16,912 nucleotides of DNA from a virus. A program made the position numbers and the translations under genes. The notes under the pieces were generated by a model, which had not been told where the DNA came from, ran no database searches, and saw nothing but the letters and a program-made list of their open reading frames with translations. This document shows positions 6,512 to 7,114 of this stretch, in pieces. How positions within the stretch are numbered: position 1 is the stretch's first letter; the number at the start of each line of letters is the position of its first letter. The stretch spans positions 1 through 16,912 of IMG/VR virus record IMGVR_UViG_3300035438_001155; one strand, written 5' to 3'.

Positions 6512-7114
6512 ATGATCAAAATTGTTGCACCACTGCCGCCAAGGTTGTATGTGGCATGTTCTGGTGGCGTAGACAGTATGGCAGCCTTGGATTTCCTCAA
6601 GAGGCGCCATGATGTCACAGTTGTCTACTTCAATCATCAAACTTTCTATGGGCACATGTGTGAACAAAATCTCACAGCCTATTGTGCCAGGCGGGATATT
6701 CCCTTGTTGCTGGGCAAGCTGGAAGCCAACAAACCCAAGCATGAAAGCCAGGAAGAATTTTGGCGCAACCAGAGAATTTCCTGGTTCCACCAGTTGCCAG
6801 GCACTGTGGTCACAGCTCATCACCTGGATGACTGCATGGAAACCTACTTGTTCAATTGCCTGCATGGCAAACATCACACCATTGCCTATCAAAATGGTAA
6901 TATTGTGAGACCCTTTCTCACAACCACCAAGAGTCAGTTGCAGAGTTGGTGTGAGAAGAATCAGGTGCCTTGGTGGGGTGATCCCAGCAACATGGACACC
7001 AGGTTCATGCGCAACCATATCCGTCACAACATCATGCCACATGCCCTGATTGTAAATCCTGGTTTGGCCAAGGTTGTCAAGCGGATTGTTGTTGACGCAA
7101 TGTCCAACACATAG
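6512..7114 (+). CDS. tilS: short TilS-like tRNA(Ile)-lysidine synthetase (PP-loop ATPase domain only, 200 aa)
   Basis: PP-loop VACSGGVDSMAAL. TilS-type downstream blocks TAHHLDDCMETYLFN, IVRPFL…SQLQSWCEKNQVPWWGDPSNMDTRFMRNHIRHNIMP. Lacks the long C-terminal substrate-binding domains of cellular TilS. Confidence 0.75.
   Translation: MIKIVAPLPPRLYVACSGGVDSMAALDFLKRRHDVTVVYFNHQTFYGHMCEQNLTAYCARRDIPLLLGKLEANKPKHESQEEFWRNQRISWFHQLPGTVVTAHHLDDCMETYLFNCLHGKHHTIAYQNGNIVRPFLTTTKSQLQSWCEKNQVPWWGDPSNMDTRFMRNHIRHNIMPHALIVNPGLAKVVKRIVVDAMSNT

Follow-up and report, generated by a model that had tools for sequence, protein, structure and literature searches.

A virus-specific TilS protein reduced to its catalytic N-terminal domain and its genomic coupling to CAU-anticodon tRNAs

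The DNA considered here, referred to as the window, comprises all 16,912 nucleotides of positions 1 to 16,912 of the IMG/VR virus record IMGVR_UViG_3300035438_001155. At positions 6512-7114 of its plus strand lies an open reading frame (ORF) of 200 residues with an ATG start, whose product belongs to TilS, the tRNA(Ile)-lysidine synthetases, and is reduced to the catalytic N-terminal domain. Further downstream on the same strand, at 10602-10726, is an interrupted tRNA gene with the anticodon CAU, the probable substrate of this protein.

The assignment to TilS is based on profile searches, an AlphaFold2 model, Foldseek and residue conservation. The NCBIfam profile TIGR02432 (lysidine_TilS_N) matched with 122.5 bits, compared to a curated cutoff of 93.6, and was covered from position 2 to position 189 of 189, and the Pfam search returned PF01171 with E=1.7e-30. 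The full-length TilS profile NF007942, with 56 bits against a cutoff of 606, was not reached. Among the other PP-loop proteins, TtcA/TtuA-type tRNA thiolases share the PF01171 superfamily and present the next-best fold, yet the TtcA profile NF007972 gave 18.1 bits, far under its cutoff of 272, and the protein is thus not a TtcA/TtuA match. For MnmA, only a HUP domain hit under the cutoff (E=0.013) and 11 bits for NF001138 were obtained, while the QueC-like (1.3e-4) and PAPS-reductase (2.6e-3) matches in PHROG were weak and partial. A preliminary description of this DNA, made from the letters alone, had named a profile assignment to QueC, MnmA or PAPS reductase as the outcome that would overturn its TilS proposal; this did not occur, and both the profiles and the fold search returned TilS.

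The AlphaFold2 model, calculated from a 33-sequence alignment, has a predicted local distance difference test (pLDDT) score of 95.9. Its top five Foldseek matches in the PDB are all TilS, with template modelling (TM) scores of 0.78-0.87, and TtuA-type sulfurtransferases rank behind them. The best match is the A. aeolicus enzyme (TM 0.87, root-mean-square deviation 2.6 Å). For the comparison of residues, 60 viral representatives were aligned with 75 cellular TilS N-domains, in which 28 columns are at least 85% conserved in the cellular set. The viral consensus is the cellular residue in 26 of these 28 columns, three of them weakly (47-52%; positions 39, 102 and the region of 16), and the window protein itself agrees at 22. 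The PP-loop ATP-binding motif SGGVDS, seen in the translation at residues 17-22 (6560-6577, plus strand), has S17, G19, D21 and S22 invariant in both family alignments and G18 conserved in at least 90% of sequences. Strongly kept in the viral family, in addition to SGGxDS, are R85, R88, H103, D107, E110, G119, R133, P134, D157, N160, R167, N168 and R171, the last five of which belong to the helical subdomain specific to TilS (DxSN, RNxxR), which is intact. The motif and the TilS-specific blocks claimed in the preliminary description are thus confirmed by the translation, TIGR02432 and the conserved columns. The viral family also has invariant residues of its own, including W84, F135 and W146, and its N-domains are slightly more basic than the cellular ones (median +3 vs 0, p=7.5e-4). 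No CxxC pair is seen in the window translation, and some cellular TilS share its Cys residues at positions 58 and 147.

Among solved structures, only the TilS proteins of A. aeolicus, G. kaustophilus and E. coli gave significant sequence matches, which extend as far as residues 223 of 317, 217 of 464 and 199 of 433, respectively. As these alignments stop partway along TilS, the window protein ends where the C-terminal domains start, about 15 residues past the NPG motif. Type II TilS, represented by the A. aeolicus enzyme (PDB 1WY5 and 2E89), resembles the phage protein in having a PP-loop N-domain with its helical subdomain and in lacking CTD2, the second of the C-terminal domains, by which the acceptor stem is read. 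It keeps, however, the first such domain (CTD1), and its identity to the phage family is about 24-34%. The Type I enzymes (MesJ of E. coli, 1NI5; that of G. kaustophilus, 3A2K) share the catalytic domain and motifs and add CTD1 and CTD2, by which the body of the tRNA and its acceptor stem are read (4:69/5:68 or 3:70/4:69; PMC11947777). Neither the CTD1 of Type II nor the CTD1 and CTD2 of Type I are present in the window protein and, as NF007942 was also not reached, it is neither a Type I nor a Type II TilS. The residues past the N-domain number 104-147 (Type II size) or 218-302 (Type I size) in cellular matches but 0-43 in viral members. These lengths, along with the structure-based alignments, bear out the earlier statement that the protein stops where cellular TilS goes on into its tRNA-binding domains. 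This architecture should be seen against the TilS literature, according to which every TilS carries at least one appended tRNA-binding domain, and which treats the discrimination of tRNAIle2 from tRNAMet without CTD2 as an open question (PMC11947777).

The missing domains are not found in the following gene (7155-9644), which is MVP-like and does not encode a TilS C-terminal domain. An assembly artefact as the source of the stop codon is excluded by the recurrence of the identical 200-residue protein, which the assembly collection records in 98 blocks and which is present in the 19 contigs that were read. One could still suppose that the gene is a captured and truncated tilS that is now non-catalytic, or a decoy that sequesters CAU tRNAs or inhibits the host TilS, since the domains that are gone are important for activity in the cellular enzymes that have been studied. 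We consider such a remnant or decoy very improbable, as the catalytic residues are nearly invariant over about 170 clusters of uniform length, features that a decaying pseudogene would lose, and as the same protein recurs unchanged in the assemblies just mentioned.

A word-indexed search yielded 991 relatives, the best 120 of which are 177-256 residues long, mostly 196-215, and at least 555 IMG/VR viral contigs, of up to 524 kb, encode a family member. When 1.84 billion representatives were searched exhaustively with phmmer, 170 clusters (50% identity) were obtained at E<=1e-30, nearly all of the top 150 being 180-230 residues long. In the two clearly longer members, the TilS domain sits at the C-terminus, so that these too are without a C-terminal extension. 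By comparison, the best cellular matches, from 185,579 species-representative cellular genomes, are 28-34% identical. The viral clade is thus a large, conserved and virus-specific TilS architecture that consists of the N-domain only. Its cultured members are PA5oct-like Pseudomonas jumbo phages, whose 'tRNA(Ile)-lysidine synthetase' (QCG76301.1 in PA5oct, gp263 in MIJ3) belongs to the same short family, with about 203 residues and 43% identity to the window protein. As short phage TilS genes have already been annotated, the gene itself is not new. What is new with respect to the searchable literature is the domain-stripped, virus-specific clade, its coupling to CAU tRNAs and the hidden CAU tRNA of the window. 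The accessible portion of the MIJ3 paper (PMC6892783) makes no mention of the missing domains or of a link to CAU tRNAs.

The genomic surroundings of the family were compared in fetched loci (numbered with the prefix L), which were dereplicated at 80% protein identity into 62 clusters; three close relatives that were added later brought the number to 65 lineages. Some tRNA is found within 10 kb of the gene in 51 of the 62 lineages and an uninterrupted CAU tRNA in 33. The tRNA nearest to the TilS-like gene has a CAU anticodon in 23 of these 51, compared to 13% in a background of 269 tRNAs (binomial p=2e-8), and when the tRNA lies within 300 nucleotides of the gene, it is CAU in 17 of 20 cases, always on the same strand and typically 8-44 nucleotides from the ORF. 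At several loci, this adjacent CAU tRNA is the sole tRNA in 20 kb. When introns were allowed, L098, L157 and L165 presented a CAU tRNA 20-136 nucleotides downstream that is split by an insert of about 200-265 nucleotides. A scan for the group I intron family RF00028 of Rfam covered these three among the loci with inserts of this size, and gave 54-55 bits in the inserts of L157 and L098 and no match in L165. For L098, the splice rule by which the 5' exon ends in U and the intron in G divides the sequence into CTCAT / ...G / AA, as opposed to the 'Gln' assigned by ARAGORN. In total, 21 of the 65 lineages have a non-initiator CAU tRNA within 300 nucleotides of the gene; the number rises to 30 for distances of up to 1.2 kb and to about 38 for up to 10 kb.

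A non-initiator, same-strand CAU tRNA is the only recurrent neighbour across the 65 lineages. Each flanking protein family is limited to 14 of them or fewer, and a conserved protein partner that could provide the tRNA-binding domains, which was considered as a candidate, was found in none of them. This has consequences for the possibility that the N-domain is not autonomous and requires tRNA-binding domains in trans, from a heterodimer with the host TilS or from another phage protein. The C-terminal domains do contribute strongly to catalysis in one Type I enzyme (PMC11947777). Nonetheless, we find a dependence in trans rather remote: in addition to the lack of a conserved protein neighbour, an identity of at most 34% to any cellular TilS makes a heterodimer interface that is conserved over many hosts unlikely, and the more basic viral N-domains are consistent with direct RNA binding. 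What speaks for a dependence in trans, on the other side, is that cellular TilS crystallises as a dimer through its N-domain.

About 27 of the 65 lineages have no CAU tRNA within 10 kb, which counts against an enzyme dedicated to a phage tRNA. It favours the view that the enzyme mainly lysidinylates the host tRNAIle2, raising the capacity for AUA or replacing host TilS activity that is lost in infection; modification of a host tRNA was also named as an option in the preliminary description, and a reader of the anticodon stem-loop only should indeed accept host tRNAIle2 also. We judge host tRNA as the main substrate to be improbable, as the recurrent CAU tRNA at 8-44 nucleotides, in some loci without any other tRNA, points to a dedicated pair, and as neither the window nor any of its nearest relatives is without a CAU tRNA of its own. 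The two roles are not mutually exclusive.

Without exception, the adjacent CAU tRNAs are paired at 1:72 and carry C11-G24, A73 and the loop CUCAUAA, and none of them presents initiator hallmarks. A non-Watson-Crick pair at 27:43 is enriched among them (12 of 18, vs 44 of 234; p=3e-5) and is also found in E. coli tRNAIle2/ileX (G.U), in the tRNA-Ile of T4 (G.A) and in both PA5oct candidates (C.U). As the window tRNA has C27-G43, this feature is not universal and was dropped as a universal identity mark. A profile built from 17 adjacent tRNAs gave 50 bits for E. coli tRNAIle2, 36 for the elongator tRNAMet and 27 for the initiator; the first two references were checked against annotated E. coli genomes, while the third is a sequence that we take to be that of the E. 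coli initiator. In PA5oct (L176), where 9-10 kb separate the CAU tRNAs from the gene and inserts are absent, unlike in the window, two of these tRNAs (9559-9635 and 10040-10116; PA5oct 267558 and 268039) are identical at positions 8-65, including C27.U43, and combine an anticodon arm like that of E. coli tRNAIle2 (ileX) with completely different acceptor stems. A third PA5oct CAU tRNA is initiator-like, and all three are annotated as tRNA-Met.

The preliminary description had predicted a cognate CAU tRNA, and this was borne out both across the family, by the tight adjacency, and in the window, at 10602-10726, once the insert was placed. Default ARAGORN and Rfam scans reported no CAU tRNA in the window, and ARAGORN with introns allowed found 10602-10726 but labelled it Pro-CGG. 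The gene consists of exon 1 (10602-10636), a 48-nucleotide insert (10637-10684) and exon 2 (10685-10726), which includes an encoded CCA. Inserts of 48-62 nucleotides sit after nucleotide 34 or 35 in the anticodon loops of Leu-CAA, Leu-UAA, Arg-UCU and CAU tRNAs of this phage group, and share a common architecture: exon 1 is followed by one nucleotide (N), a stem strand P1 of 4-7 bp, an AGGT-rich linker, a T-arm-like hairpin (GG-TTCRAWT-CC), P1', N' and a 4-nucleotide tail before exon 2, and the outer stem P1 covaries. The rule derived from this architecture restores 7-nucleotide loops for the inserts with unambiguous anticodons (Leu-CAA, Leu-UAA and Arg-UCU); applied to 10602-10726, it gives CUC / 48 nucleotides / AUAA, and thus the anticodon CAU. 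A variant of this tRNA in L004, 85% identical, keeps both exon stems and presents a compensatory change of P1, from GGGGAT/ATCCCC to GAAGAT/ATCTTC. With the splice sites placed otherwise, one nucleotide would alter the anticodon; as this nucleotide is not the same in the window and in L004, it is part of the insert. An annotated CAU tRNA without insert, from Vibrio phage 1.110.O, has almost the same D-arm and anticodon arm as the window tRNA (CATAATTGGTGAATGAACTCGC-CUCAUAA-GCGAG). By the same rule, tRNAs labelled 'Arg' in L181 and 'Ser' in L177 by ARAGORN become CAU tRNAs; with the anticodon masked, the tRNA body of L181 matches CAU tRNAs in 12 of its 15 best matches, and the best match of the L177 body is the TilS-adjacent CAU tRNA of L024. 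In the window and in L177 and L181, its nearest relatives, the insert-bearing CAU tRNA is 0.8-3.5 kb downstream of TilS. No further CAU tRNA was found in about 5 kb more downstream (L093) or 3.5 kb more upstream (L004).

When spliced, the window tRNA would have G1.U72, C4-G69, C5-G68, C29-G41, C11-G24 and A73. The pairs 4:69, 5:68 and 29:41 are those of T4 tRNA-Ile and E. coli tRNAIle2, whereas the E. coli elongator tRNAMet has U-A, A-U and U-A. An elongator of the Ile2 type is thus supported for the window tRNA, although not proven. The T4 tRNA-Ile, which has a CAT anticodon, shares A73 with it as well and belongs to a tRNA cluster that contains a GIY-YIG homing endonuclease, as the window tRNAs are accompanied by homing endonucleases. 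The 8-kb region of T4 that was examined has no annotated tilS, and the window phage brings its own; T4 relies on the TilS of its host. The ileZ tRNAs of Stx prophages also resemble T4 tRNA-Ile (CAT).

With a probability of roughly 70%, we consider the gene to encode an active, N-domain-only tRNA(Ile)-lysidine synthetase, whose main substrate would be the phage's own CAU tRNA, the two forming a pair for standard decoding of AUA as Ile. Most likely in the manner of cellular TilS, the PP-loop would use ATP for adenylation at C2 of C34 in a tRNA with the anticodon CAU, presumably the elongator-type tRNA at 10602-10726, and lysine would then displace AMP to yield lysidine. The modified tRNA would be charged by isoleucyl-tRNA synthetase (IleRS) and read AUA in place of AUG. 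As neither CTD1 nor CTD2 is present, recognition would have to rest on the anticodon stem-loop alone, perhaps aided by a weak 27:43 pair, and enzyme and tRNA, travelling together, would represent an AUA-decoding pair that is independent of the host. Family membership, fold, the conserved catalytic residues, the loss of the C-terminal domains and the coupling to CAU tRNAs are observations, whereas catalysis, lysine as the nucleophile, the choice of tRNA and the excision of the insert are inferences. An effect on AUA decoding had been proposed in the preliminary description; supply or boosting of the standard meaning of AUA fits this pairing, but 'reprograms', the word used there, is too strong.

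Several points besides the lineages without a nearby CAU tRNA weigh against this pairing and need to be considered. The distinction between Ile2 and elongator Met identity is beyond proof from sequence. The window tRNA is not adjacent to TilS but 3.5 kb away, it carries a 48-nucleotide insert that would have to be removed, and its body is divergent, with 16.6 bits against the profile of adjacent tRNAs. Deletion of CTD2 in one Type I TilS cuts the activity 'dramatically', and CTD1 residues matter too (PMC11947777), so that activity of a bare N-domain is not a given. The PA5oct/MIJ3 protein was annotated as TilS in 2019 with its function stated as unknown (PMC6892783). The demand for AUA is also modest: the codon makes up 33 of 236 Ile codons in the window (14%; 7.5 per 1000 codons), is concentrated in the homing-endonuclease and small genes and is found in neither the TilS nor the MVP-like gene. 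The argument from AUA demand is weak for the window. A rationale may nonetheless be found in the TilS of the GC-rich bacterium B. cenocepacia, which is about 1000-fold less efficient than that of E. coli (PMC12514573); with such a slow enzyme, host TilS could become limiting for a phage whose AUA content exceeds that of its host. This rationale agrees qualitatively with PA5oct, as the GC content of the phage is noted in the MIJ3 paper to differ drastically from that of its host (PMC6892783).

A last point against the preferred interpretation is found in the catalytic domain itself, where 95% of the cellular sequences have an Asp that is replaced by Ala in 90% of the viral family and by Cys50 in the window protein. 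This systematic replacement by Ala or Cys, the viral family's own invariant residues and the presence of certain metabolic genes nearby would fit an enzyme that performs the same adenylation of cytidine C2 with another outcome, by use of another amine (a polyamine or an amino-acid derivative, as in archaeal agmatidine) or by action on another RNA or DNA cytidine. The genes in question are a saccharopine-dehydrogenase-family gene just upstream of TilS in the clade of the window (in the window at 3873-5276, plus strand), an R2K ATP-grasp amidoligase that adjoins TilS in L177 and in L010, and an AdoMet decarboxylase gene further downstream. Such an outcome appears quite improbable to us. The linkage of the saccharopine-dehydrogenase-family and ATP-grasp genes to TilS was seen in only 4 of 64 lineages and is clade synteny, so that a functional tie between them was rejected; in addition, the TilS-specific helical subdomain is intact, and across the family TilS is partnered by a CAU tRNA whose loop is the canonical CUCAUAA. 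As an observation on these genomes, AdoMet decarboxylase and Amidoligase_2 genes near TilS are found in relatives, and the four types of gene, which were noted outside the window at L177 7754-10000, L093 16394-16861 and L004 1-1074, could be a polyamine or amide-ligation gene set.

A more far-reaching interpretation, which we regard as unlikely when its parts are taken jointly, starts from the pairing of enzyme and phage tRNA and holds that the clade represents a third, autonomous TilS architecture that picks its co-encoded CAU tRNA by the anticodon stem-loop alone, as a portable and possibly orthogonal cassette. In its radical version, the replacement of Asp by Ala or Cys, along with the saccharopine-dehydrogenase-family and ATP-grasp neighbours, would reflect a non-lysine amine on C34 and thus a new wobble modification, and the 48-62-nucleotide inserts with their T-arm-like hairpin would be a new, small phage tRNA intron, removed before or with the modification. 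Even short of this, a viral clade with the catalytic domain only, linked to the gene of its presumed substrate, is a natural minimal system for the discrimination of tRNAIle2 from tRNAMet. If active, it would provide a compact enzyme-tRNA pair able to supply AUA decoding in heterologous hosts, and would account for the ability of AT-richer jumbo phages to deal with a slow TilS in their hosts.

Within the window, TilS would be part of an operon u53-u243-u48-TilS-MVP-like, preceded by a sigma-70-like promoter site (TTGACA-17-TATATT, 11 of 12 consensus matches; 5284-5312, plus strand) and closed by a terminator-like hairpin of the intrinsic type with an 11-bp stem and a T tract (9672-9697, plus strand). 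A second sigma-70-like site (TTGACA-17-TAATAT; 10558-10586, plus strand), with 10 of 12 consensus matches, is located about 16 nucleotides upstream of the CAU tRNA. All three assignments are suggestive only. The MVP-like gene (plus strand) encodes 829 residues with shoulder and repeat domains (PF11978, 3.5e-19; PF17795) and has no PHROG match. It lies directly 3' of TilS in the window and is not at that position in L010 and L024. The order TilS, CAU tRNA and MCD-like gene is common to the window and these two loci; in L010 and L024, the tRNA lies 37-41 nucleotides past TilS, while in the window, the MVP-like gene and an HNH endonuclease lie in between. This is one of three homing-endonuclease genes on the minus strand among the tRNA genes (HNH, 599-1273; SegE-like GIY-YIG, 2145-2987; HNH, 9965-10453). 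They are polymorphic in near-identical sibling contigs, as L004 is without the HNH gene at 9965-10453 and L003 differs across 2122-3220. A PTH2-like peptidyl-tRNA hydrolase (12184-12651, minus strand; PF01981, 29 bits vs a cutoff of 23; phrog_1866) is conserved in the clade relatives L024 and L181. Of the translation-manipulation module that had been proposed from the sequence, the tRNAs, the PTH2-like gene and the insert-bearing tRNAs are all present, but the link to PTH2 is local clade synteny and is not conserved. An origin from a eukaryotic giant virus, suggested by the MVP-like gene, PTH2 and the short tRNA inserts, was rejected in view of the PHROG homing endonucleases and the jumbo-phage relatives.

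The other tRNA genes of the window, all on the plus strand, are Leu-CAA (347-484) and Leu-UAA (1386-1525), each with a 51-nucleotide insert (383-433 and 1422-1472, respectively) that was located by ARAGORN with introns allowed, Gln-UUG (497-571) and Arg-UCU (3117-3194). Compared by isotype only, this set overlaps that of T4. Default ARAGORN and Rfam scans overlooked two of the three insert-bearing tRNAs of the window. Similar inserts are found in L004 (13379-13504), L009 (5398-5521), L024 (2880-3027, 3135-3262 and 5166-5290), L177 (11494-11624), L179 (2449-2576 and 5800-5923) and L181 (4907-5034). The 48-62-nucleotide inserts have no Rfam match, are too small for group I introns and cause ARAGORN to miscall anticodons. 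An apparently uninterrupted allele of Leu-CAA in L003 and L004 proved wrong, as a different gene is found there. Standard tRNA callers thus mislabel or miss the relevant phage tRNAs, CAU being reported as Met, and insert-bearing genes as Pro, Arg, Gln or Ser or not at all. Inserts of about 200-265 nucleotides occur in tRNAs of other jumbo-phage lineages: L157 (10769-11053), L165 (10803-11145), L098 (9775-10052), L099, L101, L102, L147 and L148.

Further RNA genes were noted around TilS in the relatives. In L074 (9133-9533) and L165 (9246-9624; 96.7 bits for Rfam tmRNA), a phage tmRNA gene lies directly upstream, in the order tmRNA, TilS and CAU tRNA. About 2 kb downstream of TilS, the window's closest IMG/VR relatives, L009-L012 (12466-12539) and L024 (11882-11957), have amber-reading tRNAs with a CUA anticodon, labelled 'Pyl' by ARAGORN, which may be suppressor tRNAs. 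Near its end, the window contains a 51-nucleotide tandem repeat encoding 17 residues (15720-16904; 23 copies, 82% match), inside a minus-strand gene that covers 14085 to 16912 and encodes 1460 residues in L093, and it is in this repeat that the metagenome assemblies of the window phage break. Genes resembling IS605 OrfB/TnpB are found in the same phage neighbourhoods (L093 15100-16302 and L179 3019-4158).

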